Assembly: GCA_973895155.1 (NCBI GenBank)
Contig: OZ316891.1
Coordinates: 17,730,095-17,794,094, forward strand
DNA: 64,000 nucleotides
Direction: 5' to 3'
DNA from: Marsupella aquatica
Taxonomy: Eukaryota > Plantae > Marchantiophyta
Of this stretch, positions 22,028-44,437 are shown one piece after another. Each line of letters begins with the position of its first letter. Position 1 is the stretch's first letter. Made by a program: the position numbers and the translations under genes. The notes under the pieces were generated by a model, which did no database searches, was not told the DNA's origin, and was given only the letters and a program-made list of their open reading frames with translations.

Positions 22028-22867
22028 GTGGAGTGGCTTGTTAAAATTATGACTTCCCCCTCCATATTCTCCCCTCCCCTCCACTCCCTCTCCTGCCTCC
22101 ATAGCCACTACATTCAAATCTAGTTTTCCCCAAAGAAAATGCAACTTTTCTATAACAAATCAAATGTTTTTGCAGCACAATCCACCTGAACTTCAATTAC
22201 CATATCTTTGGACTGGATAGACAAAAATGAGCGTAGAGTAGCTTGTTGGAACCACAATTCTCCCCTCCATCGTCTTCCCTCCCCACTCTCCTCCTTCTCC
22301 TGCCTCCATAGCCACTACATTCAGATAGGAACTGCCCCTGCAAAAATTAGTTTTTTCAGTAGCATAGTTTTTTCAGCTTTGATTGACATATCTCTGGGTT
22401 GGACAGGCAAAAATGAGGGAGTAGCTTGTTGGAATTCTGGTTTATCCCTCCATAACTTCCTCTCCTCTACCATCCCTTTACTACCTCCTTACTAGACCGT
22501 TTTATTAGACCAGTTTACCCCTAGATTGCTGCCCAAATTGAGCTGCAATTTCTATCAATTTTTACCAGAACTGCAGAGGTTGTTGACTTTGCATTTTTTA
22601 TTAGTATTGGAGATCTTGTGAGTGGCCAACATTGCAAGAGAGGGCAAGCTTGGGGAAGATGGATTCATTTGTCTGCAATCAACTTCTTGAAGGAGTTTTG
22701 TGGCCTGGTCTTGGCTTGAGATTGGACATAAATTTCAAGCTTTCAGCTGGACTTATGAGCAATTGTTTCTAGTTTTGAAATGAATTACTATAATGCATCA
22801 TTGCTCTAGGCTGTGCTCAGTCTGCTTCAATTCACTTTGCACAATGAAAATTTGAGATTTCACTGGT

Positions 22868-24741: not shown

Positions 24742-25567
24742 CACTAGTAGAAACCGGGGGGTATTTAGACCCCATTAAATGACTATTCAGTACCGTATAG
24801 GACTTGGAAACGACTGGGAAGGACTCCAGTCCTTTATAGGACTGCGAGTCGTATGTTTTGTTACTATAATCAACTGAGTCCTTTATAGAACTGGTTTATA
24901 AGTCGTTTAATAGACTGGATTTTCAGTCTATTTTAGTCTTTGTGTGGGTAGCTTTGGTGAGTCGTTTTCAGTCTTTTATGGGCTGCGATGATGAGTCGTT
25001 GGGAACGACTAAAAAGGTTATGGAGGGTAGTCTTTAAATATACTTTGTGGGGTATGTATAAGTCTTTCATGTCAACTGGATATGAGTGATGAAGACCCCA
25101 CTATACTACTTGGAATGAACCCACTCTTGTGCACAAATAACATATTGCATTCATGTTTTATTGTGTACTTGGAATGAACTCACTCTATAAGTTCACCATT
25201 CATCATGTTAACATTAGAATACATAGTTTCAGAAAGCCATCTTCTATACCATGTACACTAATATGAATTCACAGATTCAAACTTCATAGACTACAAAGAA
25301 GGTCACAAAGTATTCCTCTATACCATACACACTAATACTGAAATGATAAAATAGATTCAAGTATCATAGACAATCACCATAGAGCCATAGTTTGACATCA
25401 ATCACTTGTTTCATACATACAGAATTCAGAAATATCAATGTCACACACAACGTCTCCTTCATCCTCTTTACCAAATGGAAAAATTGGTACAGATATTTCT
25501 TGGATCTTTCCAAGGCAATGTCAAAATGTGACACAATTCACATGATTCTATCTACACTTGCATTCAG

Positions 25568-28500
25568 TCACTGCAGACTAACACACTCTGATGGCCAGAG
25601 CACAAGAGATCCTACTGCATCTGCAATTATTTCCTGAGGTGGATCATCGACTCTATTCGGAAATGGCAAATTACAATCAGATACAATCACTGTAGTCAAC
25701 TCGGAAATGGCAAATTACAATCAGATACAATCACTGTAGTCAACAACACTACTACATGGTCATCAGGGACCACTTTGCCATGGAATTTTGCATGATCCGG
25801 TCGCAAAATGCCTGTACCCACACATACCTGCGAGTCATCCTCCCATGATAGAAGATTATGGACTGGCTCTGCTGTGGCTATCACCTCCACCTTACCCTGG
25901 CTATTTTTCTTGGCTTTCCTGGGTGGCTTATACATGACATTATTCATACCTTGGTTGCGAGTCATGACTTTGGCACGAGTGTTTTGTGCTGGTGATCGAG
26001 AATTGGCTACACTCTTCTTCAAAGAATCTGCATCCATATTTGACACTTCTGATTGTGTAGCAGGATTTCCCTGCGACATCATCTCAGTATCTGCCAACAT
26101 TGTACTTGCTTCAATTGAAGCATCTACAATCTTACTTGCATCCAATGTTGCTCCCAAGTTTCGACGTCGCTTCACCCTATTCTCACTTGGTTGAGAGTCT
26201 GTCAACTCTGCATCAACTTCAATTCAGTGTCATGTCCAACATAAGTCAATCACTCATCACATGTGCTAAATGTACATGTCACCAACCACAAAGTTGTCAC
26301 TATCTCCTTACCATTATGAACAGCCTTCTTCCCCTTCTTTGCCATTGCCATATGCTCCATGTCTGCTTCTGTTGATCAATAAACACACCACAATATTCAG
26401 GTTGAATCTATTAACCACTGAATTGTTGCTCAACATTCATATAGAGGAATTTAAAGCATCAGCTTACCTGATACCTCCTTGGCTATGGTCACTGAGGCAC
26501 TGGGCACATCTTCTTCATTATTGCTCTTCAATCATGATGTCACTTTAGATCCCAGTTCATCCAACCAGTTCTTACAGAAAAGATTACCTCCAACCGGCTT
26601 AAGCTTCACAAAACTCCATGCACTTTTCAAATGTAATGTACTGGATCATAGCAGGTTACCTGTCTCAGCAACCTTCTTGCCCTTCTGCTTATTGATTACA
26701 GGGTCCTTCTCTGCCTCCACTCTTCCTGCATTCAAACCATTCACTCAATTCATGAAAACTTACTTCTAACATTTGAACATAGGACACAATGAACAATGGG
26801 CCGGTGTCATTTCCATACCTGTGTCAGATTTGCCAATTCCCTTTTTTGTTAACAAGGGTACACTTTGTACAATGTTGCCCTCATTGTTTGGTTGGGAACC
26901 ACCCAATTTTTCAATCACAAGCTTGAAATTAGATTCCACTGATGCAAGAAGGTTCGCTACAGATGCCTCCACAATATCCAAACGATCAGCCAATTTACTT
27001 TCCACTCGAGGGAGTCCACACTCTAATGACTTCAACCGTTCACACATCTCTGTGAGAGTTGTAACAGTTCCCTGTCATAACACAGCTTACATATCTCAGA
27101 TAACTGTCCCCAAGAACTGGTTGCTTACTTCCTACTACATTTCTTTCTGATGCTCAAGGCCAAATAGTCACAGAACATACAGAATTACAACATAATCACC
27201 TGTTTGGAAGTTACACTTGTCACCTCACTCCTTTGTTTCATGAACTCCTCTCTCACTTCTTGTGCTGATGGTTCTTCACCTGTCAATTTCTTCTGCAGTT
27301 CACATCAACATACATATGAATGAAACCAAGTGTTGATTGTCAATGAAAATGTAATAATGGTAGCAAGATGATAAGTTTGAGGCTTACTATCAGGCATGTC
27401 ACTGCCTTACCAATTGTTCTTTCACTGGAGCATAACTTCCTCTCCCAGCCTGTGAAAGGTGTTTCACTTTGCCTCGAGCATTTGACATCAGTTCACTCTT
27501 GCTCTGTCCAGCCTCCGACATGAACCCTTTGATTAACCGTGTCCATTGATCCAGTTCCAATGATGGGGGTGGTGGCATTCTCCTGTTAGAACCATTGTCT
27601 ATCCACATCCTTTTCAACCTATGCCTCTCTTGTTTCAAAATCCTCATTGCATAATCTGATATGCAATCTTCAACTGGGCCCTTACCATCATTACCAACAT
27701 ACTCCCACCGTTCAAGAATGTCCTTGCAGATAGCAGCCCAATCAGCTTTGTTCTGACTCCTAAACTTTGTAATGCTCAAATCTAACCAACGCAATACTTC
27801 TCCTCTTAGGTCAGAATGCCAACGGTTCTTACCATCACATGTGGGAGTTATCCAACCTTCGGAATTCACTTCTACTTTACCAAATTTGTTACTGTCTCCT
27901 GCCTTGGTACTCCCTGAAGCGCTACTAGGTGTCCCTCCACGGCCTGGTGTCCCCCCACGGCCTGGGGTCCCTCCACGGCCTGATCTCCCCCCACGGCCTG
28001 GATTGCATTGTCCAAACCTCCCTGGAGTCCCTGCACATTTACAGGATCCATTTACAGTCACTTACATTAGGTAAGTATGAATCATAAATCCTGCTGCCAA
28101 ATATACACTGGACTTCAGAGCAATTCTACAATGACCAAGTTACCTCTCCCTTGGCGCATAGATGGTTCTGGACCACCTGTCCTATTGCTTTGTCTTGATG
28201 AATTAGGGCCGTTTCTCCCGCCTGTGAATGATTGCCGCCTATTTGAACGTGGATGGCCTTTGTTGTTTTCGTGATTGTCCCAATCAGAGTCTCCATACCA
28301 ACAGGTACATGCCACACTCATGGACCTGTAAGATAAACTCTTTGCCCTAGCTACACATCAGATAAGTCCATATTGAGCTAAATCTCTACTACCATCACAA
28401 AATCACTAGCACAAGGCACTTACTTGTCCAATCATCCTCCTCACCTTTCCATTGCCCTCTGTACCCGTCTCTACCACGCTCTGGGTGTTCATATTCATCC

Positions 28501-28930
28501 CATCCATCTTCTGCTCCATCATAGTCATCATCATAATTATCAAGCGTCCCTTGCCAATAACTCTGGCTCCTTCTAGGGTATGGATTATGTGATTTCTCTC
28601 TAGCTGCCCACCTACCTGGGACTTGATGAGGGCCCTGTGCAGGATGCACAGGTGCATTTTTCTGTGAGCCCCCTGCATCTGGGTCTCCATCCATATCCAA
28701 TCTTTCCTCTTCACCCCACTCTCCAAGCCCCATGTCTGTCTCCATGTCATCACCCTCTTCCCCCATAGCTTCTGCACAGCACCCACAACCAAACAGGGAG
28801 AATCAGCACACTAAATTCAAAGTATCAATCAATTTCATGCATATCCAACTATCCTAAACATCATTCCAGGCAGCAATTCCCGTTCTGTGACTCTGTGCAG
28901 GTAGTCATCCTCAACCTCATACTTGCCAAT
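25568..28930 (-). pseudogene. CACTA TnpA-like multi-exon gene
   Basis: Exonic pieces: acidic N-terminus, PGRGG repeats, ..QERHRLKR..PPPSLELDQWTRLIK..SELMSNARGKV..AGRGSY (Ptta/En/Spm type), a coiled coil, and C-terminal FHGKVVPDDHVVV..LPFP..DAVGSLVLWP. A 44-bp tandem duplication (25657-25744) frameshifts the last exon. Exon limits are approximate. Confidence 0.75.
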
Positions 28931-28943
28931 CGCCAGCTGTTGC

Positions 28944-31900
28944 CTATTGCAAATCATCAACCTCATCATATTCCATTTGCCCAGGTTCATCATATGTCTC
29001 TCTCAATATTAAGGGGATGTAGTCAGTCCCTACCCGAGTTGGAAGTACAGTCTCATGACTAGGATGCTCGAATGCAGCATGGTCATCCAAACTGAACTCT
29101 ACTTTACTTCCATCCATCCGCCTGTTCCGTGCTTGGCTATGGCATACCACCCTCCAGCCATGTGACTCCTCCACATCTGCAAAGAAACCCTGTTCAACTT
29201 GGCTAGGGAAAACAAAAGGCTCAGACCATTCTGGTACTCTGGACCTAAAATTGGCCAACAAGAACCCATCATGATCACGCTTCATGGTGGCCCTTGGTCT
29301 CTGCCACTCTGATTTCACCCATGATCCCTTCATCAATATCACTGGGACACTTGTGTTACCATAATTCAACACCCAAATGTCGGTCAACTCCCCCACGTAA
29401 CCCATCTTCATCCACCCCCTCTGTTCTTCAGAGGTTCTCTGCTCAAACACAGAAATCAAACCACAATCATATGATACACAATGGTCACCCTGCTCATCCC
29501 TCACTCGATAATGATTTCCATAAGCTCTCATCCGTTTGTAGGTCAGAATAGACAATCGTGGTGGCACAGATAGAAGATACAAATCTTTCTCCATATCTGG
29601 ATGATGTCTACTATGCTCTCAAATTGTCACCCGAATCCACTGCTCGAACTATGGGAAGGGATCCTGCTGCCTAGAGTGTGCAGCTTTTTGCATATCATAT
29701 TCCCTGCAATATGAGGTACAGGCATAGTTAGGTCTAAACAACACATGACAACCTAAGATCACCCTTGGAACAGACAAGAAGCATCACAACAAAGGCAAGT
29801 CAATTCAATCACTCACCTCCACCATGGTTGCATAGGCTCTGTGTTTGCCAGCACATATGAATGAGCCTTGTCTCGAATCGCAACAAGCAGCTGAATAGCA
29901 CATCCCACACCTTCAACAACCTCGCCACTCACTCCATCATCTTCACCAGATTTCCAAACTCTTGTCATAGCTTCACCAGACCCAGCCATGTACTCTGTTA
30001 GGAATCCCAACGTCTCATCCTTAATGTACCCCAATGCCATGGAAGCCTCTGGCCTGTAGTATGTTCTCACATGACCTTTCAACAACTTCATGTATCGCTC
30101 CATAGGGTACATCCATCTGGTACTGACTGGCCCATACTGCCCTAGCTCTTCTACCACATGGATTAGGAGATGAGTCATAACATCAAAGAAAGCAGGGGGT
30201 AGTATATCTCCAAGTCACAGAGGACATAAGCAGCATCCTGCTTCAACTGCTCCAATCCTTGGGGATCCCACACTTTCACACATATACGGCGAAATACATT
30301 GCATAGTCAAAGAATGACATTACGGACTGGTTTCTGCATGAGACCTCTGAGGCATAGGGGCAGAATGTGCTGCATCAACACATGGTAGTCATGTGTTTTC
30401 ATACTGCCAAGTTTATTCTTTGTAATATGCTTCTTGAAGGCACTTTCAGACAGCTCAATCTATACAAGAATGTCTTCCATTCATCCTGTGTGCACACATA
30501 GGGAGCTTGGAACTTGAGAAGTACATTGGGATTGCTTGCATGGGGCTTCAACCAAAGGTGAGGGCCAATCCCCTTCTGTTGCATATCAGCTCGAACTGCT
30601 CCTGTATCTTTCTCACCCGACAAGAACTTCAGCAAGCTCTCACAAATATTTTTCTCAATGTGCATGACGTCCACATTGTGTTTGCTGGCCTCGAATTCCT
30701 GCACTCCACAAAGCAAAGAATTCAACAACAGAAACACTAATTAACCACATAGGAGGATTGTAACCAACATCAATCCACCATTGCTCGTATCTAAAATTGC
30801 AATCATACAGGGGCTGGAGGCTAAGTACATTACCCTCCAGTACTCCAACTCCAAGTCCATCAAGGTCTGTCTTTTCACACCGTGTTTCACCACTGGATCC
30901 TCGGGTTCTCGATCAGTGGCACTTCTCTTGTCCCAATCAGCCTTCCTGGCTGCCCACCTCAGGACTTGCTCTCTGGTGACCCTCTGTGGTGGGCCACGAA
31001 GCTCTGTTTTGTTGTTGAAGTGTGCAATTTGAGACCGTGTGTGCCTGTAAGGATGATCAACAGGCAGATACCTTCTATGCCCCTGAAATTTCATACTGTG
31101 CAGGGCATGCGACCACTCACTTGTCACATTTTTCCCACATGGTGTGCACCCCACATAGCCCTTTGTCACTCGTCCAGATATGATGCCATGGCCTGGGTAA
31201 TCTGCTATATCCAGCAAACAAATTGCATGCAGTCTAAAGGGGCTGGGTCGAAGAAGCCCCTTCAGAACATCATGGGTTAACACCCCTTCTATCCACAAAG
31301 TCTTCCACTCTTCCACTGCTGGAGCCAACATGATATCTATGAATTGCTCGGTCACAGAAGCTGGTCCAGGGATTAACAACACCATCATGACAAAAAACCT
31401 CTTTGTAGTCATCCATGGGGGAAGGTTGTAATTTAGCAGCGTAACCGGCCAACATGAATAACGGTTGTTTTTGTCTCCAAATGGGTTTACTCCATCCAGT
31501 GATAGACCAAATCGAAAGTTCCGCTTCTCTACAACAAACTGTGGCCACCTCTCATCAACAAATTTCCAATGGTTGGAATCTCCAATGTGACGTTGCAGGC
31601 CATCACTGCTCTTGTTATCAGGAGTCCATGTCATCAGCTTGGAAATGGCAGGGCATCTAAACAGACGTTGTAGTCTAGGAATGAGAGGAAAATGACGAAG
31701 AACCTTGGCAGGATGTGTACATTTCCCTACATTCTTGTACCTGTGCTTACCACAATGAGGGCATGTCAATTTATCTGCATGCTCTTTGCGAAAGAGAACA
31801 CACCCATCAGGGCATGCGTCAATAGACACATAGTTCAGCCCAAGGTTAGACATCAATTTCCTAGCCTCGTACATATTTTTTGGAATTGAATTACCATCTG

Positions 31901-32929
31901 GTAACACATTTCGGCGCAGGAAGGTCAACAACTCTGTCACAAATATATTGGGAACATTGTGATTGCCACAGATGTTCAACAACAACACGACAAAACCCAG
32001 CTTGGAGCAGTTCGACCCCTCGTAGATAGGAATGCAAGCTTCTTTGATGTGTTTTGGGCCCCCAAACACCCACTCCCTCTCTGCTGCACCTTCCCCAATG
32101 TCAAAGTCAGGTTCAGCTTGGCCATCGCCAATGTGTGGCTGCGGTTCATTGTCCTCTTCTGATTCCACTGTGTCGTAAAAAGCATCAAGGTCTTCAAAAA
32201 TCTCTTGAACCATTCTTGGGACATCCATCCCACCGTCCTCAGTGACTGCCTTTGCCTCTCCATCTTGGTCATCCACGTTCTCATGTTGGACCCCAGGACC
32301 ATCCTCTGCACAGTCTATGTCCTGCTCTCTCGGGGGTTTCACTTCCACAAAAATGGCACATCACGTGCGACGAAGTATAGGGTTGATTTATTGGTTTGAA
32401 GGGAAGACTTAAGAATTTTTGTAGAAGAACAATAGGGTCCTTTAAATTCAATTTTGAGACTTATAAGAACATTAGGGTCTTTTTAACCAAAATTTTGGAA
32501 TATTCCAAGAATATTCCAACTTTATAGGGGTTGAAAAATTAAAAAAAATTCTTATATTTTAGGGGGTCTGAGGCCTAAAAACGTCGCAGGGGATGGGGAG
32601 ACATCCATATAGTGAGACCCCTGAGCCTGCTCTACGTAGTCTCTACGCCTAGCTGTATTAGAATCCACAAAGTCAGCTCTCCACTCTTCATCAGAGGAGT
32701 CTTCTTCTGCTGGTACATTCCAAACCCTCCACCGAGGGTGTCTTTCATGCCGCAGCAGGTGAAGGTGCACAGTGTTCAAACTCAACGACTTGAATCCTTG
32801 GCACTGTGTGCATGGGCATCTCATCCTCCTACTCCTACCTTGGGCGGCCCGGGCTTGTTCACGCATCCACAATTTAGAATCATGATGCCTAATCCTAAAT
32901 GGGTTGTGAAGAGGCAACCTTGGAGCCAT
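28944..32929 (-). pseudogene. CACTA TnpD transposase (Transposase_21/DUF4218/DUF4216 type), disrupted
   Basis: RCPCTQC..VHLHL; IDACPDGCVLF; LRHFPLIPRLQRLF; LSLDGVNPF..YSCWPV..NYNLPPW; DYPG; DVMHIEKN; KTHDYHV; MTHLLIH..GPV..RWMYPMERYMK; EPFVFPSQVEQ. Broken by a MITE (32362-32592), a frameshifting deletion near 30435, a TGA near 30307 and a frameshift near 30200. Confidence 0.92.
32362..32592. mobile_element. 231-bp MITE inserted in the TnpD coding sequence, AT target duplication
   Basis: at|CACGTGCGACG ... CGTCGCAGGGG|at. Removing the element plus one AT restores the TnpD frame (..MDVSPCAIFVEVKPP..). Confidence 0.85.
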
Positions 32930-33282
32930 CACTATACACACGCACTCAGCACCCTATCATTTTATTATGCAAGTGAAAAATACACTTCCTGTTAAGGATT
33001 TCACCCCCGACTGTACTTGCCAAAATACGTAACATTCCAAAAAAACAAAAAAACAAAAAATATAGGTGCCTGAGTCATGTACCTATTCTCAAGTGAATGA
33101 GACAAAATTCCTAAATGTTTGAGGGTGTCAACTCCTCCGCTGTCCTCACATGTATTGCCTCTGCACGTACATCCATGACCATATCAGAGTCCAATCATGT
33201 ATAGTCATAGACACAGGTGCCAGGTGCGAGACCGGTGTGAGATGTCCTCATCTTACTACCACATCAAATACGGATACCAATC

Positions 33283-33789
33283 CTATTGTCGATGCCACTC
33301 AGCCCTGAGGTACTCAGGCATGTACATTAAGTCATCAAGGTCTAAACCCTGCTCATGCCATGGTGGTCTTCGATCCGTGCCTACAAGCAGTGGTAGCAGT
33401 GCCCTCCATGGTGCACATGTTGCTACTAAGTCCCTCCACTGGGTACTAATTAGTCTATATTTGCAGATATCTTGTGCGCCAGACACCACAAGAACCCTCG
33501 GCCAGACATGTGTAAGAACTATATCATCTGCCAAATCAGGCAACAAGGAACCACCTACAGCATCGTGCTTGTCTAACTCATCTGCTGAAAAGTAAATGTC
33601 CTCTTCCGACTGTGCATCCTCATTCACCACAGCATTCACAACACATCCAAGGTCTGCAGGCATTATCTCGGATGGAGCTACACTCTGTCTGGTTACCAAC
33701 CCACACAAGTAAGCCCAAGCAGTAGCCATGCACGATGCAACCCGTAGGAGGACCCTACATAGGGCCTGACGGTCTGGAAGAGGCAGCAT
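33283..33789 (-). CDS. F-box-motif protein carried by the CACTA (possibly C-terminally truncated)
   Basis: LLPDLADDIVLTHVWPRV..CKYRLISTQWRDLV fits the F-box consensus LP.E/D....I...L.........VSK.W..L. The stops after 33283 are TAG/TAA/TGA, explainable as C-to-T of Gln/Arg codons. Confidence 0.6.
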   Translation of the reverse strand: MLPLPDRQALCRVLLRVASCMATAWAYLCGLVTRQSVAPSEIMPADLGCVVNAVVNEDAQSEEDIYFSADELDKHDAVGGSLLPDLADDIVLTHVWPRVLVVSGAQDICKYRLISTQWRDLVATCAPWRALLPLLVGTDRRPPWHEQGLDLDDLMYMPEYLRAEWHRQ

Positions 33790-33965
33790 ACCCACCAAAG
33801 TCTTCAACCAAACAGAGCCCAGCAAGTAGATTCACAGTCACACCCCACACAGCAGGAAACAACAATCACTTCAACTGCGACCAACCATGACAAGATGAGT
33901 TAGTTCAAGGATCACATTTATTACAAAATTGTGATTTATACAAAAATATGAGGGACTCCTACTCC

Positions 33966-34814
33966 TCACTCTCTCCCACCTTTGCTAAGCATACATCTCC
34001 GCTGAATCTTGGAGGGCCAGGCCTCAAAAATATCAAAGTCCCAAGCATGCTGTCGCTTCCCTCTAACTGCTGATTCCAGAAGCCAATCAGGGGAAAGCAC
34101 CCAAAGATTGTTGTTCATGACAAAATCACGCACTATTGTCTTAAAGAATTTTCTGCATATTTTCATGTATGACAGACCTACAACATGAGTGGAGGTTTCT
34201 GTTAGACTCTCCTCCACTGTCCCACCTAGCTCAACAACTATGGACTTGTATAGTCTGCACTTAGTCTCCCCAATTCCTTCTTCTGCAAATACCACACTGA
34301 ACCCCTTCATAATGGTATTTCTCTCCTTGCCATGCTCATTCAATATAGCATCTGCACGCATAGGATGGTGTCCTATGTTGACAACAGGTCCATATTGGAC
34401 AGAAGCAAAGTTGGGTTTCTCTGCCGCTGCTTCATAGGCTTCCTTTTCAGCCAAAGCCTCTGCAGTGGCCTCCTCACTCTCCCACAACTCATATTGCTCA
34501 GTACTCTGTACACACCTATGTTTAACAGAATCGGTCAGCCAAGAGACTTCAACTACTTTTAGACCTTGGTTGGTAATGGCAGAATCAATGAAGGACCATG
34601 ACCACTTGTTCATCACATCCAGCCATGTCCCCGCAACAACATGTGTAGTCTGTGGAGTGATGTCCTTGACTTCAGTCCCATGGAACTCTGAGAATCGTTT
34701 TTGTACGATTGGCCAACTCACTTGGGTGAACCCATAGTGGCCAGGAATCAAAATGGCTTTGATTCCAGCCAACAGAGGCGGGTGGTCAACCTTTGTACGT
34801 TTCCTAGAGGCCAT
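33966..34814 (-). CDS. Tandem BRCT-domain protein (DNA polymerase lambda-type BRCT), intact 282-aa ORF in the CACTA
   Basis: Two repeats: LLAGIKAIL..HGT..TTHVV..VVEVSWLTDSV and MKGFSVVF..GIG..ELGG..STHVV..VLSPDWLLESA..FDIF, with the BRCT GG, THVV and W..(D/E)S hallmarks; basic NLS-like N-terminus (RKRTK). Confidence 0.85.
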   Translation of the reverse strand: MASRKRTKVDHPPLLAGIKAILIPGHYGFTQVSWPIVQKRFSEFHGTEVKDITPQTTHVVAGTWLDVMNKWSWSFIDSAITNQGLKVVEVSWLTDSVKHRCVQSTEQYELWESEEATAEALAEKEAYEAAAEKPNFASVQYGPVVNIGHHPMRADAILNEHGKERNTIMKGFSVVFAEEGIGETKCRLYKSIVVELGGTVEESLTETSTHVVGLSYMKICRKFFKTIVRDFVMNNNLWVLSPDWLLESAVRGKRQHAWDFDIFEAWPSKIQRRCMLSKGGRE

Positions 34815-35412
34815 GTACACACGGGCCACCTAATCACTACAGACCAGAAGATAATGCGTTCACCTGATAATCGGAGGGCCCTTAAAATGCTGCGTTTATA
34901 ACTTGGTCCAGTCCAGTCGTCTGGTGAGTCTCTGCTCCGATTCCAAACGGGAGAAATATTGGGACAAACATACTAGACACCTGCAAGCATGCACCTCATA
35001 GTTTGAATATGTGCCTTCACAATATTGAAGGTGACAAGTGCAATTGTTTTGTGATGCCACATACAGATGTTGTAAATGGGCAGACATTCAATGAGAATAC
35101 AAAATGTTGGTACACTTTAAGGGAATTCTCACAAATTAAATAGCCTTGTAACTTATATGCTCATAATGAGAAGTCCTGATTTAATTTAAGCAGTGTCATG
35201 TAAGTCGTGATCAAAATGATTGCAGAGTTAAAAAAGTTCCTAGAAGGCTTAAGGGGAGTTTTTGAAGGCATGTACCCAGGAACAAGTAATGAACTTAGGG
35301 TACTTGTTGCCTAAGCATCCTCTCCTACAGAGGTCCTTCTTCTCAAAATTGGAATGTCTGCAATCTCCAAGGTATCCACATCAGGTGCACTATGCATGTA
35401 CATTATTCAGGT

Positions 35413-36093
35413 TCAAAGCCAAGAAATGTGATCTCTCATGGGAGTGTGCAAAGTAGGATCTATGGCATGGCGATGACAATAGAAGATCCATCGATCAACA
35501 CCATGTGCAGAGTGATCATAGATGTGTCTGTCACAAGCATAGCCTTCTGCTTGACGCTCCTTCAAACAATGAAAGTGCCACATGGTGGGACACCTAACAC
35601 AGTGGACTATGTCCACCCAGAAATCTTCATCGTGCTGACCACATGCCTTGCACTTATGAAGTGGGCAAGTTGTGGCAAGATCGGGCAAACATGAAAAACA
35701 AAAGAACCTCACACAATATCTGTCAGGGCATTTCCTAACAAGTGGTGGAGCATCAACAGAGCCCTCATAAGACCCCAACTTCCCACACTGTGCACACTTA
35801 GCCTACTTCTCCAAACAATTAGTGCACATCCAGCCTCCCTGGTGTGCTGACGGGAGGCCCACCCCTGGACAGTTGTTTTCTACAGCAAGGTCAGACTCTG
35901 GGTTGAGGTGGAAATGCCTCATGCAAGGGCCCTCACATATGGCTAAGCCACCACCATCGTCACAAATGGCACAACAATGAGCTGCCTTCTGGAAAATCTG
36001 ACTTGCGGAGAAGTTACTACCATCTGGCCCAACTACACCTGTGTTGCTCACCTCTGTCCCCCGCTTCTTGGCTCGGATTTTAGGGCGTGCCAT
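35413..36093 (-). pseudogene. EDM2-like (NSD-type) PHD-finger cluster; one ORF of about 226 codons with a single in-frame TAG at 35803-35805
   Basis: CAICDDGGGLAICEGPCMRHFH..WMCTNCLEK*AKCAQCGKLGS..CPLHKCKAC..CVRCPTMWHFHCL..IFYCHRHAIDPTLHTPMRDHI aligns by eye with recalled Arabidopsis EDM2 (CAICDNGG..CEGSCLRSFH..CPLHKC..CRRCPKSYHRKCL..IYCQEHEID..TPVRDHV). The two listed ORFs are in the same frame. Confidence 0.85.
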
Positions 36094-36758
36094 GCCTACG
36101 CATGAGACAGATAGTACAATTTAGCAGAGTGCACAGACAATACAATTTAGTGCAGTGTACAAAAAGTACAGTGTAGCATATAGACTAGAGTGGCAATTGC
36201 TACTGCAATGAAATGTTCACACACATGTGCAGAGTAGACATACTTTTTGGTTTGTTGAGCCCACACTAAAAACTGATCCCCTCAATAGCTCCACCTACAC
36301 CTAAATTTTGTGGCTATGATTCACCAAAGGAGATCTGCAACAAGATTTAATGCATTCGAATCACATATAACAGTCGTGACATGTAAAACAGGCATTTTTT
36401 GAACAGGATTGGTATCAAGCACTGTGATCAGGGTTGTAATTTATACATCCTAAATAGGCTATGATAGTGAATGAGACAAATAAGTTAGGCAAAAATCACT
36501 TTTTCCAGGTTATCACATGGCCCATTAATTCCAGTCTTTGAAAGGAGACTTTTAAGTGAGCTTGCTAGCCTCTTAAATTAGGATATTGTACTTAGTGCAG
36601 CCATAATAGGATAAGTTATGTACTGTTGACCCTAAACCCTGGACCCAGAATTGGTCATAATTCAAAATCTTAAGTAAATATCCTCTCTGTTCAAGTCAAA
36701 GTGTTAAGTTATAGGTCAATGGTCTCTGGTTTGTGCATGCGGTGTGACAAGTGGTCCT

Positions 36759-37208
36759 CTAGAGCGTGTGATCCAAACATGTGTAGACACCAAAGTGACC
36801 GGTGGTGGGGTCTGGGAGGGCAGGACAAGTGACATCGCCAGGCACACTGCAGGATGGCGAGTGGTTCCAGATGATACATTGTGCTCTGTGAAAAAACCGA
36901 CATCCAAGAGAACGGTCATCCAACTCTAGGCCAGAAGCCCTACAGGCAGGACAGTCATATTGGCAACTGTGCACACACCCTTGGGCCCTAATTTGTGGCG
37001 GGTCATGTACGAGAGACAGAAATACCAAGGATGTTGGGAAGGGTGGAGAAGCAGGTACAGGCCGGCTGTAGTTGTTCCTGGCAACAACTGGGTACTCAAA
37101 GTACCATGCAGACTGGGCTGGAAGGATCCCAAGTCTGACATACTCAAGGCGCAACATCTCTGCCTTGCGTGCAAGCCGCACATGTTCAGCGTTGCGGGTC
37201 CTCACCAT
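36759..37208 (-). CDS. Cys/His-rich hypothetical protein (149 aa) in the CACTA
   Basis: ATG-initiated ORF co-oriented with the other cargo; basic N-terminus (MVRTRN..RLARK) and CVHSCQYDCPAC..CRFFHRAQC cluster. No family recognised. Confidence 0.45.
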   Translation of the reverse strand: MVRTRNAEHVRLARKAEMLRLEYVRLGILPAQSAWYFEYPVVARNNYSRPVPASPPFPTSLVFLSLVHDPPQIRAQGCVHSCQYDCPACRASGLELDDRSLGCRFFHRAQCIIWNHSPSCSVPGDVTCPALPDPTTGHFGVYTCLDHTL

Positions 37209-40200
37209 AAGTGTTGCTTTTGTGGAGATGTCGTGTGTTCACGTCCTCTGATAAGCACCTTCGATCAGCAAGGTGAGCAGGAGCTGTACTTGCCTCACCA
37301 ACAGCAACCAACCTTAAATTATCAGTTCCCACTCACTGTGTCATTCCATTGGTTCCAGCTAGGGGTCACAGTGTAAACATAGCATGAAACACTCCTAATC
37401 AACTTGCTTACAAACTACAATATCCAGAAAGAGTGAAAGTCTCACCCTCCAGTGAGCAGCAGAGAGGTAGTTCACTAGATGTGTTGATGTGCAGTTAAAC
37501 CTCCACTATTGCTTACTTCTGGTGTATGCTGCTCAGAAGAAGACATATTAGTAGCAGCAAATTGCAAATAATGGCCATAAGCAAACCGTGAGAGTTTGCA
37601 GAATGCTACAACAAATCCATCACAGCAGTGCTCCACAGGAATGAAACCAAGCAAAATTTGGTGACCTCGGCCAATGACAAGGCCAATGTAGTGAACAATC
37701 CTTGACCGATCAGGATATGGATTGGAATTACAATTAGTCAGCTCTTCTTCTTTGTTTTCTAACTCTGGGGCAAATGAGCATGACCAGGGAATTCTTTGAG
37801 AAATAGAAGTGCACAGGGAAAATGAAATTGGCTCATTGAGTTGCGCAAGACCGACCACTGCAGCATAAACAAACTCATGAAGAGGCAGAAAGGATAGCGT
37901 TGCCACAAGCGCAAAATCCCAACAGGTTTAAGTTGCAAAAAACTAACCCCTCCAAATGTGATTGCAACGGTGTTGAGGTCGTCTGTTCACCACCCCACTC
38001 CACCGTGGGAGCATTGGGCACAAGGCATGTTCGGATCCAGGGAGGAGAAAAATAGTCATGTGAAGCAACAAGTGTGGAGAGACCAATAAGTAAACAAAAA
38101 TAGGGAAGAACAATGCGGTGATCATGAGCAGCAGGAAACAAGAAAGTTGATTTGGGAGGGATTGTAGGGACAGAGCTTTTGGTGGGCTTGGCTGCGCGTT
38201 CATATCGGAAGATAGATGCGAGAGAGTGTGAAGAGGGTGGCAACCAACAAAGGCAGTGGCAAGCAAGCAAGCAATACACGATGATAACGGCAATCGGCAA
38301 TGGCGGTGGGAGGCAGCAATAGGCTAAATGAATATTCAGTACCAATCCGCAGCTCGTCCGATGAGAATGAGTGACATGAGGAAAATGCCAACACACTGAC
38401 CCACTACCAAGAAGAAAGAAAACCAATCTCAACCACCCTCTATCATCAATGACAGGACATATATTCAAAAATCCAAGCTGCAATTGATGGAAACAACAAC
38501 ATAAACAGAATTCTGAACATAAACTGCTCATGAAGCTTTCGGGATCATATATTCCAAGAGCAAATGTGAACATGCCAATATATGAAAGCTCTGGCATACA
38601 GTTCATTGCATTCCATAGAGACGTCTGCACCAAAGAGCTTGGAAGCAATTGCCTATCTGCTGGAAGCAGGAAACATATATGTAAATCCCAAGCCCATACT
38701 ACATTGGAGATGATCAGCTCACTCAGACAGACATTGCATTTTGATTAACCAAATGTAGCAGGCTAGCAGTGGGACGAAGGATAGGGCCAACACTAATGCA
38801 CAGCAGTGAACAACTATGATTAACCAAATGTCAGTAGCAGGCCAGTAGAGGGACGGAGGATAGGGCCAACACTAATGCGCAGCTGTGAAAGACTGACAAA
38901 TAGAAAGCAAACAAGAGCTTCAAATATAGAACATCAAACCTTCTGCAGCGGTCGATGGGCTTTGATTCACAGGTCGCCTGGCTCGGTCCCTTGTCGCAGC
39001 TCGCCCAGCTCCACAACACCGTAGACAAGGAGTTGGTTGGTCCAATTTCCACCATGCAGCGTTAGCAAAATGGCAATGCTTGATCTTCGCCCTCCGCCCT
39101 TTGCCCGAACCCCAAAATATCACAAGCACAGCTCCAACGTCCAACTGGCAACCCTCCCCCGAGCTTGCTTAGACGAAAATCAGCATAGCATAGCTGAGTT
39201 CAACGGAAATCATCTCAGCACCCACCCCAGCTGAACAAAGCTCACACAAGAGCTCATACGGGAGCTCACTATGGGAGTAAAAGAAAAATAGGAGGGCCGT
39301 GTGGCGCAACTACATGGACCTGTCAAACTCAGCGCCTCCTGAGAAGAACATTCCTGTCCGACCGCGACTGTAAAACCCTTCAAAACACTATGAACAAACA
39401 CTCACCTCTGACTTGTAACTTTGTCAATGTGGCCGACAAATCCCAGAGCGCTGCCGAGCTTGGTTGTTGCTCGAGTTGTAACAGTGCTCAGCTCAGCGAC
39501 GGTGACCCTAAACCAAATCCTTCGTCTCTAAGTCCGCACGTCTCTTAGTCCGCAGCGCCGACCACAAGAAAGGTGGAACACTAAACCTCACTATACAGTA
39601 GTGGCCGTGAATGCCCGTGAATGCCTGCAAAGACAACACAATAAAGTGCAAAGGGTTAGAAATGTGGCGGGATTAGGGTGTGACAGAGTGTGGAGGTGCA
39701 AAGTGTATGCAGAGTTGACCCTCCAACGGATGCTCCAACTCGCTCCCCTCCAACGGTCGCGCAAGTAGAAGCCCCGGCCCCTTGGGATTCCCTTACCGTA
39801 GTTCGCTCCAAAGCCAATGCCTTCTGTAGCAGGAGCGATCACCTCTACTGAAGCAGCTTCAATCGAACACACAACAACGGGGCGGGCAGCGACAACACTA
39901 ACAGTGAACGATAGACTACTCAAACGACCTCAAAATGGAACAAAAGCACGAGAAAACATTGAGGCAGAAGGCAAGTCCCTAGCACCAGGCAACCAAAGGA
40001 TCGGGACCAAAGGAAGGGATGACATGCCATTCCAACAACGGGAAGGGGGAACGGGACGCGGGAACGGGCAATATTTTGATGGTGGGGATGGATGCCGACA
40101 ATCCAATGGTCCCTAAACCCCCATCCCCTTAACATGCAACCCCCGACCCTTGACATCAAACCCCCCCTAAACCCCCTTTAGTGAAAACCCAGCCACCCCC

Positions 40201-40879
40201 TAGCCTTGACATATAAACCCCCTAAACGTCTTGACAACTCGACTGTGGCCATACTATCTTTGCAATGCCAGGGGCCATTTTTAGAGTGCCGCTTGCAAGC
40301 TCAGGCTCTCAAGATCCTCCCAAGGCAGCAAACAAGTTAGGGTCCCTAAACATGTTCCTTTACCCTAAACCATTGCATCACTATTTCAATCGAGTGTTCT
40401 TCGGCTGGACAACCCCCTAACCCTAAACCCACACCCCCTTGAGACCGGTACAAATCTACCTTTGTGCATCTCGGCCTTTTATAGATGGAGTTAGTAATCG
40501 ATCCCTCCGTAGTCCACTCTCCATGAACCTCACTCCAAAACCTTTTTGGTCACAAATAAGGCCATTTATTGAGTTATGCCCCTTGCTATCACCCTCTTTA
40601 TAGAATTACCCCTCCTCAACATAAGTGAACATTACCCATGATGTGCTAGACTATTCACCGTTCACAAAGTAGCAAGGTTACTTCTCATAGTCTTTTAGTG
40701 AACCATCAAACACTAATAGTCTTTTGTAGTCTTCAACAAAACCGGTGCAATGGGTGCGAGTCGTTTCAAGTATGGAAAAAGGACTTAGTGGGCTTAGTCC
40801 TATAAGGTATGGTCTAAATTGCCCCGGTTTCTACTAGTGACAGTTCTTCCTAGGGCCAACTCATGTATAGCATTTTTAT

Positions 40880-41510: not shown

Positions 41511-44437
41511 CCCTACAAAGAGAAAGCAACATCAAATTCAGCATCTGGAATTAAAGCTCACCTGAAAGTGCACATGGTCATAGAGTTAAGCAACGATAGC
41601 AAACTAAGGGCAACTATTCAATACGAATGCATAGACGTAACACACAGAAAAGACAATCTTTGAATCACAATCACACAAACAAATGAGAGATAATGCAACA
41701 ATTCAATCACAATCCCACAGAGAAAGAGCAGAGTTTATCAAGCTCACATAGTTGAAGAAATTGATCAAATTCCTACCAGATCATAGACATTTGAATAGTT
41801 GCAATTTGATTGTTGTCTTCAGTTGTGCTTGAACACTTGTCTATGGAGATAGGAGCCAGCTGCTTATGGAGCCATGTTGTCCAATCACAAAATCTCCAAG
41901 ACAAATAAGAAACACACAGTCAACAACCTCTGAAATTTTGGTAAAAACCGACAGAAATTGCAGCTCAAATTGGGTAGCAATCTAGGGGTAAAATGGTCTA
42001 ATGTGGAGGTAGTAAAGGAATGGGAGAGGAGAGGAGGTTATGGAGGGGGAACCCACATCCCAACAAGCTACCCCATGCTCATTTTTGCCTGCCCAAACCA
42101 AAGATTGATATCTCAAATCAACGTTGAACAAACCGTGCCGCTGGAAAACTAATTTTTGCAAGGGAAGTTCCAATCTGAATGTAGTGGCTATGGAGGCAGG
42201 AGAGGAGGGGAGACTATGGACAGGAGAATTGTGGTTCCAACTAGCTACTCCACTCTTGCTTTTGTCTATCCAATCCAAAGACATGCTAATCAAAGTTCAG
42301 GTGAATTGTGCTGCAAAATTGATTGTTTAACAGAAAAGTTGCATTTTCTTTGGGGAAAATCCAATTTGAATGTAGTGGCCATGGAGGCATGAGAGGGAGG
42401 GGAAGGGAGGGAAGAATATGGAGGGGGAAGTCACAATTATAACAAGCTACTCCACGCTCATTTTCACCTACCCAATGGAAAGATACATGACATATATCAA
42501 AGTGGAAGGTCTGCTGTCACTATCAACTCCTATTTCCTTAGGCAAAACTGTAAGTCCTTTATTCACTTTGCATTTTCTTTGGGAAAAACGTGAATGCAAT
42601 GTTTGTGTTTCTCTCCTATGCTACAAGCATTGATTAGGAGCCGACGGGATTGAGAGGAACCAACAAAAAACATCAGGGAGAGGTTTTTGACAGCGGGAGA
42701 GGGCTGGCAGGGGGGAGCTCACACTAGGCGACCAACCCCTTCAGTTGGGGCAGAACAAGTTGGGCAGAGATTTTTTGAGGGAAAATTCCCACCATTGGAT
42801 GCATACATGTGGCATGATTTCAGCCGTTGGATGAGTATGAGTTAAACATAGGTGGTTAACTTAACCCCTGCTGCAAAAAGGTGGCATTCTAGTAAATAAG
42901 CATGACAAGGTAATAATTTTGCAATAAAAAGGTGGCAAAGCAGTAAGTCTCAATTTTCAAGTGGCCACTCTCTAGCATTTGGGGAAAGGGAAGCAACCGG
43001 CTGCCCAGCCTAGTAATGACCCAAAGGCTTTGATTTTGGACACCTCCTGACTGGGAGAATTAACTTACTTTGTTCTTCCCAAAAATTTCCTAGCGTGTGA
43101 AGACAAAAGACAATGCACTGCCCATGACATAGTGCATGCCCTATACTTTAAAAAATGCCCTCCTAGGGATTCCATCAAGGCACTTTGATTTTTGTCCATA
43201 ATTTCTTAACTTAGTGTCATCAAGAGAATGCATGGCAATGACACAATGCTCAATATTGTGACAAAATGCTCCTGGCTTGCTACACTAGGGAGGGAAAGTA
43301 CTCTCAGGCCATGGGTTGCTGGTGCTATTTGTTTAGACGTTTACAAGGGGAGGTTTTGGGCTCTGGTGGGGACTTGCTTGCTTTGATTGCCTTCTTTGTC
43401 GGGAGGATTCTACTGACTTGGTTTGTTTTATACGTCGCAAGATGCTATGGGTATTGTGGAATGGTAGGAATAAGAGGGTATTTACTCAAGCGGCTGCCAT
43501 TCGCCCATTCATTTATTTTTGCCTAGTGCTCTTAAATGACTGATCCTTTGCAAGTGGTTAGCTTAATTGCATACCCCTAAGCAGGAAACTTATGTGTCCA
43601 CTAAGTGCAAAAGAAGTGCTTATTAGGGAAAGAAAACTATTATGGGCGCACAGTGGCACTCATTTTCTTTAGGAGGAAATTTTCATTGGTTTGTGAGTGT
43701 TAGAACCAGTTTTATTGTTGGCTAATTGGCATTCAGAAACACTAAAATACTATGAGCTATGGGCCATGTCTTAGGTAGGATGTGGTGTTTGCTGTCTTTT
43801 ATGGCTTACAGCCTGGTTCTGCCCTCCTTCAAGGAATTGTCCTTTTATGTTCCTTGTTCTTTTGGGCTGTATTACTTCCCCTTTCTGTAGGGTTATCACG
43901 GTTTAAATAGGGGGTCTCAAATATTGGGCCAGGCAATTCCTACAGATGACCGTTTTAGGTGGCGGACGCGGCTAAAACTTGTACGACACTCCCTCTGTGT
44001 GGCCTGCACACTCATATTGTGGCAATTTACCATTTCCCGAGAAAAGTTTGGCCCGAACGGTCAGCACAATTTAAATTGGTGGTCTAACACTCTTATCATC
44101 CTGTCATACACAAATTTCCACTCTCACAAGAGGGAAATGCTATCGCAATCAAGTTGGGAGCTTATCGTCGACGATCGCGAATTGATCAGAGGTGCATAAC
44201 GGAGTGTGTGTCAATGGAGAGTGTTTCAATCAGACGTCAAAGTGTTTAGAGTTTAGCATTGACAGCCAACATTGGGAGCTTATCATCAACGGGACGCCAA
44301 TGCCAGCAAGCTTGAATCAACAATCTTGTGTAAGTTCTTTTGACTCTTGACATGCATGCTCTGTTGTCCACTCTTGAAGTACCATGCATGAAAATATTTG
44401 GGGCCTGAGTCTAAATTTTTCTTTGCCATAAAAAGAG

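Follow-up and report, generated by a model that had tools for sequence, protein, structure and literature searches.

A stand-alone EDM2-type PHD-cluster protein encoded in a CACTA transposon of the liverwort Marsupella aquatica

Chromatin readers in mobile elements and in EDM2

Chromatin readers are already known from mobile elements, as the chromodomains of chromoviruses and the PHD finger of RAG2 illustrate. In the case of RAG2, a PHD reader located on a polypeptide apart from the transposase-type nuclease RAG1 couples cutting to a histone mark. In chromoviral (Ty3/gypsy) integrases, in turn, insertion is directed by a chromodomain, a reader of heterochromatin marks that the element itself encodes. 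Plant DNA transposons, CACTA among them, are also frequent carriers of captured host sequence.

Among host proteins, the PHD cluster of EDM2 (ENHANCED DOWNY MILDEW 2) is a module that reads heterochromatin inside genes: a review (PMC7472560) describes binding of EDM2 PHD fingers to H3K9me2 and other marks, and promotion of distal polyadenylation across intragenic heterochromatin by the ASI1-AIPP1-EDM2 complex. Further parts of EDM2, as given in PMC7529245, are the ELP domain (resembling N6-adenine methyltransferases), a PGR domain and a C-terminus rich in proline. What these sources say agrees with the EDM2 background (H3K9me2 binding, ASI1/AIPP1, distal polyadenylation) on which the original prediction for the present locus was built. 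An accessory protein of another kind is VANC of the VANDAL (Mutator-like) transposons, presented in PMC5735166 and PMC10398659 as an anti-silencing protein that binds the element's noncoding DNA in a sequence-specific manner.

Here we describe a gene for a stand-alone protein with an EDM2-type PHD cluster in a CACTA transposon of Marsupella aquatica, found in a stretch of 64,000 nucleotides (GenBank assembly GCA_973895155.1, contig OZ316891.1, positions 17,730,095 to 17,794,094 of the forward strand) which we will henceforth refer to as the window and whose numbering we use throughout. The protein resembles VANC in being an accessory protein of a plant DNA transposon facing host epigenetic silencing, but VANC, going by those sources, is no histone reader homologous to a host factor. 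RAG2 differs in having only one PHD finger, in its kelch-repeat body, which the present protein lacks, and in working with an unrelated transposase superfamily, and we claim no homology to it. The chromoviral chromodomain has another fold, belongs to a retrotransposon and is fused to the integrase, whereas the PHD protein is separate from its transposase. In full-text literature searches we came across no transposon family described as encoding a stand-alone version of the EDM2 PHD cluster homologous to it, and the main text of an Arabidopsis transposon-product atlas (PMC13547354) mentions neither EDM2 nor PHD nor BRCT.

The PHD gene and its CACTA element

The element (see Table 1) ends in perfect 18-nt inverted repeats of the CACTA...TAGTG type and is flanked by a 3-bp target duplication, ACA (24739-24741 and 40840-40842). 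Its Transposase_21 match (PF02992; 4.9e-59) lies on the minus strand together with DUF4218 (3.1e-22), and the DUF4216 and Transpos_assoc matches fall under the Pfam cut-off. No TnpA-like protein was recognised, the 3' open reading frames (ORFs) of the element being without a Pfam match. Repeats near its ends are short, local ones only, and there is no second copy of the element within the 64-kb window. The PHD gene is the first gene of the element, upstream of a tandem-BRCT ORF that lies ~600 bp downstream on the same strand, and upstream of the Transposase_21 gene. The first repeat of the BRCT protein shows a weak likeness to the BRCA1 BRCT (E 0.17), and a homolog of this protein, P0180 (294 aa, 61% identity), is also stand-alone. 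The 182-codon, weakly F-box-like ORF has an atlas score of 0.90 on only 76 shared features and is a lead only.

Table 1 Features of the CACTA element and of its PHD gene, in window coordinates
Feature	Coordinates	Strand	Remarks
CACTA (En/Spm-type) DNA transposon, complete, 16,098 bp	24742..40839	-	orientation set by transposase
Terminal inverted repeat CACTAGTAGAAACCGGGG, element 3' end	24742..24759	.	18/18 nt complementary to other end
Terminal inverted repeat, element 5' end	40822..40839	.	exact reverse complement of CACTAGTAGAAACCGGGG
Transposase gene region, several ORF pieces	28944..32953	-	
Transpos_assoc piece	32953..32555	-	
Transposase_21 piece	32360..30741	-	
DUF4218 piece	30214..29813	-	
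DUF4216 piece	29618..28944	-	
182-codon ORF, weakly F-box-like	33286..33831	-	Pfam F-box E 0.082
Tandem-BRCT protein ORF, 282 aa, own ATG (MASRKRTKVDH...)	33966..34814	-	Pfam BRCT 1.8e-13, two stretches
Stand-alone PHD-cluster protein gene, 226 codons + TGA, broken at codon 97	35413..36093	-	
N-terminal tail, residues 1-39	35977..36093	-	basic start MARPKIRAKKRG; conserved F-S/T-x-x-E/Q-x-x-Q motif before finger 1
PHD finger 1, residues 41-93	35815..35973	-	Pfam PHD-1st_NSD residues 38-93; invariant columns
Premature TAG, codon 97	35803..35805	-	sister copies: CAG or CAA
PHD finger 2, shortened variant, residues 100-146	35656..35796	-	Pfam PHD_NSD weak, E 0.012
PHD finger 3, variant type, residues 148-209	35467..35652	-	Pfam PHDvar_NSD residues 148-180
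C-terminal tail ..AIDPTLHTPMRDHISWL then stop	35416..35466	-	aligns with EDM2 tail I-D-x-x-L-x-T-P-x-R-D-H-I

Two ORFs had been called in the region of the PHD gene (35803..36120 and 35413..35802), and the original prediction took them to be one frame split by a single TAG, likely a former CAG. Translation confirmed the first point: the frame from 36093 to 35413 begins with MARPKIRAKK, ends with RDHISWL followed by TGA, and contains a single in-frame stop (TAG, 35805..35803). The second point was borne out by sister copies, since + strand position 35805, an A in the window, reads G (i.e., CAG) in 42 contigs of four public runs: at all depth in runs X1 (5 contigs) and X5 (2 contigs), at 296,415 of 298,163 in X2 (24 contigs) and at 52,556 of 53,701 in X4 (11 contigs). 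A minor variant among the sister contigs, C>T at 35803, turns codon 97 into CAA, and the homologs P0001 and P0002 have Q at this position. The stop is not fixed in all copies, nearly all sisters keeping CAG; given that the 42 contigs of the four runs read CAG, we take it to be private to the window copy. The PHD gene in the window copy is thus knocked out by one CAG-to-TAG change that is absent from almost all sister copies. As the C of the family's codon 97 sits in CAG, a CHG context, this change fits cytosine deamination at a CHG site.

The sister copies, members of a repeated family that takes in the PHD gene, were sampled as contigs of runs X1, X2, X4 and X5 (labelled as three organisms), of which 1,692, 7,488, 3,129 and 244 in the four runs matched positions 32400-37400 with at least 85% likeness. 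In X1, six near-identical contigs with similar word depths (1,648-1,978) are spread from the 5' part of the transposase to the PHD gene and differ from the window at 11 of 2,095 letters. Joints in the contig alignments are short skips in repeats and were not trusted as introns. In the best 40 of 360 rows, complemented with the codon-97 check, the window differs from nearly all sister contigs at at least 20 sites, 15 of them changes to A or T; among the rows listed, 12 of these 15 changes were at CG or CHG, contexts that account for 25% of cytosines (p 1.4e-5). Read from the sequence, this concentration of private C-to-T changes at CG/CHG, the one at codon 97 among them, is the hallmark of a copy under methylation and silencing. 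Within the PHD gene, the 19 variants listed among copies comprised 7 silent ones (including CAG/CAA at codon 97), 10 that change a residue, 1 new stop and 1 change from stop to Gln, and because they are too few and were chosen by depth we give no dN/dS figure.

Three PHD fingers follow one another along the protein in the Pfam order PHD-1st_NSD, PHD_NSD and PHDvar_NSD, with scores just under the respective curated cut-offs in all three cases (26.7 against 27, 16.3 against 23.9 and 26.0 against 27). Of the relatives, P0011 exceeds the cut-off for PF23004 (31.2 against 27) and PF22908 (28.3 against 23.9), and precomputed annotations of PF23011 and PF23004 exist for P0003 and P0005. Finger 1, whose limits were read from the ligand spacing, has the ligands C41, C44, C53, C57, H62, C75, C90 and C93, and the invariant positions of finger 3 are C148, C151, C165, C168, C176 and H209. 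In finger 2, residue 132 is a Cys in place of the His of EDM2-type modules, and the loop between C135 and C143 is only 7 residues long. The protein ends 17 residues past finger 3, and its basic N-terminus MARPKIRAKKRG is a putative nuclear-import signal.

An AlphaFold2 model of the protein was of middling confidence (pLDDT 71, pTM 0.64). Its nearest Foldseek matches were histone-H3-binding multi-PHD modules, the PZP modules of BRPF1 and JADE1 (E 4e-5), with low TM-scores of 0.19-0.27 on the query. Among 679 chains compared with VIA-align none reached Z>=5, the best (Z 4.1) being the PHD5-C5HCH tandems of NSD2 and NSD3 (81-85 residues, rmsd 2.9-3.5). The structural matches, taken from a predicted model, support a multi-PHD module and nothing finer. 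NSD1/2/3 share the Pfam models (PF23011, PF22908 and PF23004) in the same order, and NSD2 residues 659-794 align weakly with the PHD protein (E 0.032). The transposon protein is without SET or PWWP, all scores are weak, and the kinship holds at the level of finger type only.

A family related to but distinct from EDM2

The closest long relatives of the protein are named EDM2 orthologs. Searching 1.84 billion proteins exhaustively with HMMER, we obtained 241 matches at E<=1e-3, the best against named EDM2 reaching down to 3.9e-18. The long matches that were looked up carry the EDM2 name at source (Arabidopsis, Cryptomeria, Neltuma, Mangifera, Aristolochia and Selaginella), and the named orthologs cover residues 22-224 of the PHD protein. 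In the reverse direction, tblastn of EDM2 proteins against the window aligned only residues 224-432 of Arabidopsis EDM2 (35976-35419, in a single piece across the TAG; E 7.6e-17) and only residues 200-404 of Cryptomeria EDM2 (E 2.7e-22), and found other parts of EDM2 nowhere in the 64 kb at E<=1. The predicted extent of the gene, namely the entire EDM2-type PHD cluster up to the tail with no further EDM2 domains, therefore holds by tblastn, as does the absence of an interruption in the window copy.

The whole module can be aligned with EDM2, from finger 1 through the I-D-x-x-L-x-T-P-x-R-D-H-I tail, and 30 columns show no variation among 6 proteins of the transposon type and 5 of the EDM2 type. 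Identity measured on the window DNA is 31% for Arabidopsis EDM2, 36% for Cryptomeria EDM2 and 35% for an unnamed Marchantia protein; the HMMER search gave 39% for the Cryptomeria protein. As to Pack-type capture of host sequence, in which one would look for close nucleotide identity to the parent gene and for a ragged piece, often with traces of introns, the protein is only 31-36% identical on the window DNA to the EDM2-type proteins compared (Arabidopsis and Cryptomeria EDM2 and three unnamed liverwort proteins), and the module is entire, with a start and a stop of its own.

As for differences from EDM2, the 226-aa protein has no DNMT1-RFD-like N-terminal domain, which is also absent from the window and which we found in Arabidopsis EDM2 (P0161), Cryptomeria EDM2 (P0025) and the Turnera protein P0020. 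It also lacks the methyltransferase-like ELP domain, the PGR domain and the C-terminal regions. Both its basic N-terminus and its stop are its own, and it is transposon-encoded and high-copy. In finger 2, the His present in 111 of 115 EDM2-type rows is replaced by Cys in 10 out of 10 transposon-type rows, and the loop, with a median of 27 residues in the former (range 10-55), has 7 residues in all 10 of the latter. Because finger 2 is changed in this way, the mark specificity of EDM2 should not be assumed for the transposon protein.

Proteins of the transposon type are stand-alone and ~187-245 aa long; identity among them is as low as 35-53%, but the zinc ligands do not vary. Five homologs of near-equal length were 38-80% identical by BLASTP and 36-80% in a MAFFT alignment, and further short ones appeared in the HMMER search. 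An alignment and phylogeny with EDM2 PHDs, proposed along with the original prediction, found the proteins to be EDM2-related but in a distinct clade: all 10 transposon-type rows fell together (SH-aLRT 100) on a stem of 0.99 changes per column. This clade falls outside the 88-row seed-plant EDM2 group (SH-aLRT 97) in a tree which is unrooted, having no outgroup, and which also contains an 11-row liverwort/grass paralog group; joining the family with the seed-plant EDM2 group was not rejected by an AU test (p 0.337). The original view of a transposon copy of the EDM2 module is thus right in that the gene is in a transposon and its cluster is of EDM2/NSD type, but it is not a simple copy, given the separate clade with its own ligand change, loop deletion, start and stop.

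Across 10 members that share 35-79% identity with P0001, invariance was seen at 20 of 39 Cys/His positions but at only 16 of the remaining 187 (Fisher p 5e-9), and start and stop are conserved in the family alignments. The tail was compared in the 10 full-length transposon-type rows, the window copy and L001, a metagenome locus of 1,867 nt. The protein ends directly after the tail motif in P0001, P0002, P0004, P0005, P0011, the window copy and L001, and overruns it by 2 residues in P0007 and by 8 in P0003; P0178 and P0179 have a variant tail, DHVSTAIL, and P0006 diverges ahead of the motif. Going by this pattern of conservation, the proteins form a separate family that is under constraint. Several members are truncated or frameshifted (P0006 and P0008-P0010), meaning that many copies decay, and as protein databases hold open frames only, the sample is biased toward intact members. 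L001 is a 44%-identical copy that ends in DHISWL-stop and has an in-frame TAG of its own, between the N-terminal tail and finger 1; its 1,867 nt show no transposon feature, and no BRCT ORF within ~670 nt downstream. Since L001 alone provides the genomic context of distant members, the link between the family and CACTA elements rests on the window element and its near copies.

Possible roles of the protein

We tentatively propose, giving the idea somewhat less than an even chance, that the protein is a transposon-encoded reader of H3 tails which tethers the transposition machinery to marked chromatin. It would enter the nucleus by means of its basic N-terminus and bind modified H3 tails in the manner of the EDM2 and NSD clusters. 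As it is devoid of an effector domain, it would act as an adaptor for the transposase, and perhaps for the neighbouring tandem-BRCT protein, and might in this way steer or license cutting and insertion on chromatin bearing its mark; RAG2 with RAG1 and the chromodomain of chromoviral integrases served as our working analogies. Several observations count against such a tether. Reader and transposase are not fused, truncation or frameshift has affected several members of the family, and the CACTA association is seen for the window element and near copies only. The Pfam matches of the window copy are all below curated cut-offs, the predicted model is middling, with weak structural matches (Z <=4.1, low TM), and finger 2 has departed from that of EDM2.

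Another explanation, which we consider unlikely, is that the protein mimics EDM2 as a decoy: by occupying H3K9me2-type marks it would shield copies from the silencing loop, or it would replace EDM2 so that the long transcript is not cut short. The nearest long relatives are indeed EDM2 orthologs, and the decay signature of CG/CHG methylation indicates that the window copy probably carried silencing marks. The idea also draws on the mark binding and distal polyadenylation reported in PMC7472560 and on the precedent of VANC of VANDAL as a transposon-encoded anti-silencing protein, as described in PMC5735166 and PMC10398659. However, finger 2 is unlike that of EDM2 in both ligand and loop length, and a protein lacking all other parts of EDM2 would be expected to compete with it rather than replace it, unless the PHD cluster recruits AIPP1 (we found no statement in the literature on the EDM2 region that does so). 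Targeting was ranked above the decoy by argument only: a reader that does no more than compete with EDM2 should promote premature polyadenylation, which runs counter to the needs of a long element transcript, and reader modules of mobile elements mostly serve the choice of integration site. A bolder version, which we regard as doubtful, is that a highly successful transposon family has turned the reading head of EDM2, a factor by which the host tolerates heterochromatin, into a weapon, with the free-standing reader, the BRCT protein and perhaps the F-box-like protein subverting H3K9me2/CHG-methylation silencing or hijacking ASI1-AIPP1-EDM2 to obtain full-length transposase mRNA from silenced copies. 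If true, this would amount to an epigenetic arms race using a stolen host domain.

The protein may also have no role at all. Given how commonly plant DNA transposons capture host sequence, it could be a host-derived passenger of no use to the CACTA lineage, with intact sister frames reflecting youth rather than selection. The near copies are in fact too young to show selection, as the window differs from the X1 majority sequence at only 11 of 2,095 letters; truncated members exist, and the AU test leaves the family joinable with the seed-plant EDM2 group (p 0.337). We nevertheless think this quite unlikely, since members with only 35-53% identity keep the start, the stop and far more invariant Cys/His than other positions (20/39 vs 16/187, in a database biased toward open frames), changes peculiar to the family have become fixed, its stem is long (0.99), and the module, which has an ATG and a stop of its own, is entire and not a ragged fragment. 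Still less probable, in our view, is that the PHD reader joins the tandem-BRCT protein in engaging chromatin where excision has left double-strand breaks, and that the two bias the repair of these breaks (e.g., copy-back from the sister chromatid) instead of choosing targets. The position of the 282-aa BRCT ORF on the same strand, ~600 bp downstream, its conservation as a stand-alone protein (P0180, 61%) and the BRCA1-like first repeat (weak, E 0.17) are in keeping with such a set, but this is an argument from neighbourhood alone: the PHD-BRCT pairing is seen only in the window element and near copies, and L001 is without a BRCT ORF in the ~670 nt downstream.

Should the transposon protein bind the same marks as EDM2, this would show that a reading head of the EDM2 type is able to function with all other parts of EDM2 missing. 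The protein would then be a compact natural tool, and would allow a direct test of the ways in which a high-copy CACTA family handles H3K9me2/CHG-methylated chromatin or turns it to advantage. If inert, the protein would still be a clean example of a host regulatory module long kept in a transposon lineage.

An EDM2-type PHD cluster in a CACTA element

The frame of the PHD gene encodes a product that starts MARPKIRAKKRG and has the C-terminus RDHISWL. Its sole interruption is a TAG at 35805..35803 (codon 97), as expected from the original prediction of a single frame split by one stop, and an in-frame TAA lies 10 codons 5' of the ATG. Pfam assigned three NSD-type PHD models in the order PHD-1st_NSD, PHD_NSD and PHDvar_NSD, each scoring slightly under its curated cut-off in the window copy.

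We searched 1.84 billion representative proteins exhaustively with HMMER, using the PHD protein as query, and obtained 241 matches at E<=1e-3, of which 119 reached <=1e-10 and 6 reached <=1e-30; they included many long proteins (about 1,200-1,400 aa) in which the matching part lay near residues 200-450. Among 20 long matches whose source names and organisms were checked, those from Arabidopsis, Cryptomeria, Neltuma, Mangifera, Aristolochia, Selaginella and Miscanthus were labelled EDM2 or EDM2-like by their sources; the others came from liverworts, moss, fern, zygnematophyte and green algae. Only residues 224-432 of Arabidopsis EDM2 and 200-404 of Cryptomeria EDM2 aligned with the window, each in one piece on 35976-35419 that spanned the TAG, and none of the remaining EDM2 parts was found in the whole 64 kb at E<=1. 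The anticipated EDM2-type module, uninterrupted apart from the TAG and unaccompanied by other EDM2 domains, was therefore recovered. Whereas EDM2 has a DNMT1-RFD-like domain before its PHD cluster and, according to PMC7529245, further regions beyond it that include an ELP domain of methyltransferase-like type, the predicted PHD protein has none of these, being an EDM2-type PHD cluster and only that. Since three defining features of EDM2 were tested and not found, we regard it as an EDM2/NSD-type putative histone reader but not as an EDM2 ortholog.

An AlphaFold2 model of the family protein P0001, run with a 14-row family alignment, reached pLDDT 71 and pTM 0.64. Foldseek ranked the BRPF1 and JADE1 PHD-knuckle-PHD modules (E 4e-5 to 2e-4) and NSD PHD5-C5HCH tandems as its top matches, and VIA-align matched it to the NSD2 and NSD3 tandems (Z 4.0-4.1, 81-85 residues). 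The BRPF1, JADE1 and NSD modules bind histone H3 tails; the model's likeness to them scores weakly and suggests only that P0001 is a multi-PHD module.

A separate family of stand-alone PHD proteins

A word-index search found five relatives of near-equal length (226, 220, 245, 217 and 218 aa, with identities of 80, 74, 53, 40 and 38%, respectively), and the HMMER search added further short proteins; all short members derive from assemblies of Logan, JGI or ENA, where their contigs measure about 1-13 kb. The family shares a basic start (MARP-K...) and a common C-terminal end: the stop directly follows D-H-I-S-W-L/I in the database proteins P0001, P0002, P0004, P0005 and P0011, in the window copy and in the metagenome locus L001, with 2 further residues in P0007 and 8 in P0003. 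The L001 relative (529-1200 of that locus, 44% identical) is another family copy broken by one stop, a single in-frame TAG (592-594) between the basic N-terminal tail and finger 1.

A maximum-likelihood tree (IQ-TREE, LG+G4, quick search) built from 125 modules grouped all 10 transposon-type rows (i.e., the stand-alone short proteins) in one clade with SH-aLRT 100, whose stem measured 0.99 changes per column; the remainder roughly followed plant phylogeny. This tree, which had no outgroup, placed the family outside the 88-row seed-plant EDM2 group (SH-aLRT 97); joining the two was not rejected by an AU test (p 0.337). Finger 2 also sets the family apart, as one ligand is Cys in 10/10 transposon-type rows and His in 111 of 115 EDM2-type rows, and its loop has 7 residues in every transposon-type row versus a median of 27 (range 10-55) in the others. 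In 10 family members with just 35-79% identity to P0001, 20 of the 39 Cys/His positions were invariant compared with 16 of 187 others (Fisher p 5e-9), a pattern expected from constraint on the zinc-finger fold, in predicted-protein databases that favour open frames and with truncated members (P0006, P0008-P0010) also present. The original description of the gene as a transposon copy of the EDM2 PHD module thus stands as regards homology to the cluster, but with its own clade, ligand swap and short loop the predicted PHD protein is not simply a copy of EDM2.

The host element and the decay of the window copy

The element, present once in the window, is bounded by an exact 18-nt inverted repeat with ACA adjoining both outer ends, spans 16,098 bp and has CACTA-superfamily termini and a 3-bp duplication; judged by termini, target duplication and transposase, it is an ordinary CACTA. 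The BRCT ORF, the 182-codon ORF and the transposase region all lie downstream on the same strand, so that, read from the element's 5' end, the PHD gene is the first that can be recognised. The stand-alone tandem-BRCT protein is 61% identical to P0180, a 294-aa database protein. The 182-codon ORF contains an F-box-like stretch (LLPDLADDIVLTHVWPRV..., weak at Pfam E 0.082) and scores 0.90 in the atlas against an F-box cluster; the two have few features in common. A second, TnpA-like gene could be represented by the 220-codon ORF.

Features of the window and their coordinates
Feature	Coordinates	Strand	Description
PHD gene	36093..35413	minus	one frame, 226 codons, then TGA
26-nt tandem units	36107-36184	coding strand of PHD gene	3 units, 69-100% alike, beginning 14 nt upstream of its ATG
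Variable stretch	36150-36234		swapped for 40 different letters in some sister copies (runs X2 and X4)
Terminal inverted repeats	24742-24759 / 40822-40839		CACTAGTAGAAACCGGGG / complement
Tandem-BRCT ORF	34814..33966	minus	282 codons, own ATG, two BRCT repeats, Pfam 1.8e-13
182-codon ORF	33831..33286	minus	between BRCT gene and transposase; at best weakly F-box-like
Transpos_assoc	32953..32555	minus	transposase region
Transposase_21	32360..30741	minus	transposase region, 4.9e-59
DUF4218	30214..29813	minus	transposase region
DUF4216	29618..28944	minus	transposase region
220-codon ORF	27399-28061	minus	element 3' part; no family match
18-nt tandem repeats	27928-27999		GGTGTCCC[T/C]CCACGGCCT, within the 220-codon ORF
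Long inverted repeats	22026-22635 / 41871-42457		~600 nt, 83-86% complementary, several blocks
107-nt inverted repeat	19490-19596 / 21921-22027		97% complementary, 2.3 kb apart
Ty3/gypsy-type retrotransposon	51173-57047	plus	gag/aspartyl protease, RT, RNase H, integrase
294-codon ORF	53052-53936		overlaps the retrotransposon; matches cytosine-5 DNA methyltransferases
504-codon open frame	2-1513	minus	runs past window start; no Pfam match

The long inverted repeats lie beyond the two ends of the CACTA, by ~2.1 kb and ~1.0 kb, and could be the long inverted ends of another element in which it is nested; the 107-nt pair is possibly a small inverted-repeat element. Elsewhere, the 294-codon ORF matched Pfam DNA_methylase (6.2e-6) and the DNMT3A catalytic domain (residues 55-172, E 6.4e-5), a DNMT3-like piece within a retrotransposon that is noteworthy in its own right.

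Public runs containing the PHD-gene stretch are labelled as three organisms. The stretch 32400-37400 represents a large repeat family that occurs in numerous variants: at >=85% likeness, four runs (X1, X2, X4 and X5) yielded 1,692, 7,488, 3,129 and 244 aligned contigs per run, with every identity class represented. Six near-identical contigs of X1, which may itself be the source sample, are spaced between the transposase 5' part and the PHD gene and show 11 differences from the window in 2,095 letters; their similar word depths (1,648-1,978, not calibrated to copy number) fit a single repeated unit of which the PHD gene is a part. At 35805 the window has A and sister contigs G, which reads CAG (Gln) on the coding strand; this is the case for 5 X1 contigs and 2 X5 contigs (the full depth in each run), 24 of X2 (99.4% of depth) and 11 of X4 (97.9%). 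A minor sister variant at 35803 gives CAA, likewise Gln, and P0001 and P0002 have Gln at this position. The codon-97 stop is private to the window copy and recent, rather than fixed in all copies, and CAG was correctly anticipated.

Among the rows listed (40 of 360), together with per-site readings, we found at least 20 sites at which the window departs from essentially all sister contigs; in 15 of the 20 it has A or T and the family G or C, and 12 of the 15 lie at CG or CHG cytosines (9 CHG, 3 CG), compared with a CG/CHG share of only 25% of all cytosines in the stretch (enrichment p 1.4e-5). The codon-97 stop site is itself CHG. This bias reads as the decay pattern of a copy methylated at symmetric sites and silenced in plant fashion. 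In plants, CHG methylation accompanies H3K9me2. Given this association and the decay pattern, it is probable that the chromatin of the element itself bore the mark that EDM2 PHDs bind according to PMC7472560, which agrees on this point with the original description.

A candidate adaptor on marked chromatin

No description of such a gene turned up in full-text literature searches that paired EDM2, PHD or BRCT with CACTA or with words such as transposon-encoded or accessory, nor in a 2026 atlas of Arabidopsis transposon products, whose main text was searched by term. The PHD gene is a transposon-encoded putative chromatin reader, or a putative host module kept by the transposon. Its product, which consists solely of a basic N-terminus and three zinc fingers, would be able to bind but not to act.

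Where mobile elements have reader modules, these mostly relate to site choice; the RAG2 PHD plays an adaptor role for RAG1, as chromoviral chromodomains do for integrases. Our leading, if tentative, reading is that the PHD protein is an adaptor for the element's other products on marked chromatin. It might instead compete with or mimic EDM2 on silenced chromatin, which we consider unlikely: a bare reader set against EDM2 should favour premature polyadenylation, harmful to a 16-kb element with a long transcript. That cost and the site-choice precedent rank the adaptor higher, by argument and not by data. We give somewhat less credence to an inert passenger, and a repair-handling role together with the BRCT protein seems improbable. 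As an adaptor, the PHD protein would keep the transposase, possibly along with the BRCT protein, on chromatin bearing a given mark, and would thereby steer or license cutting and insertion.
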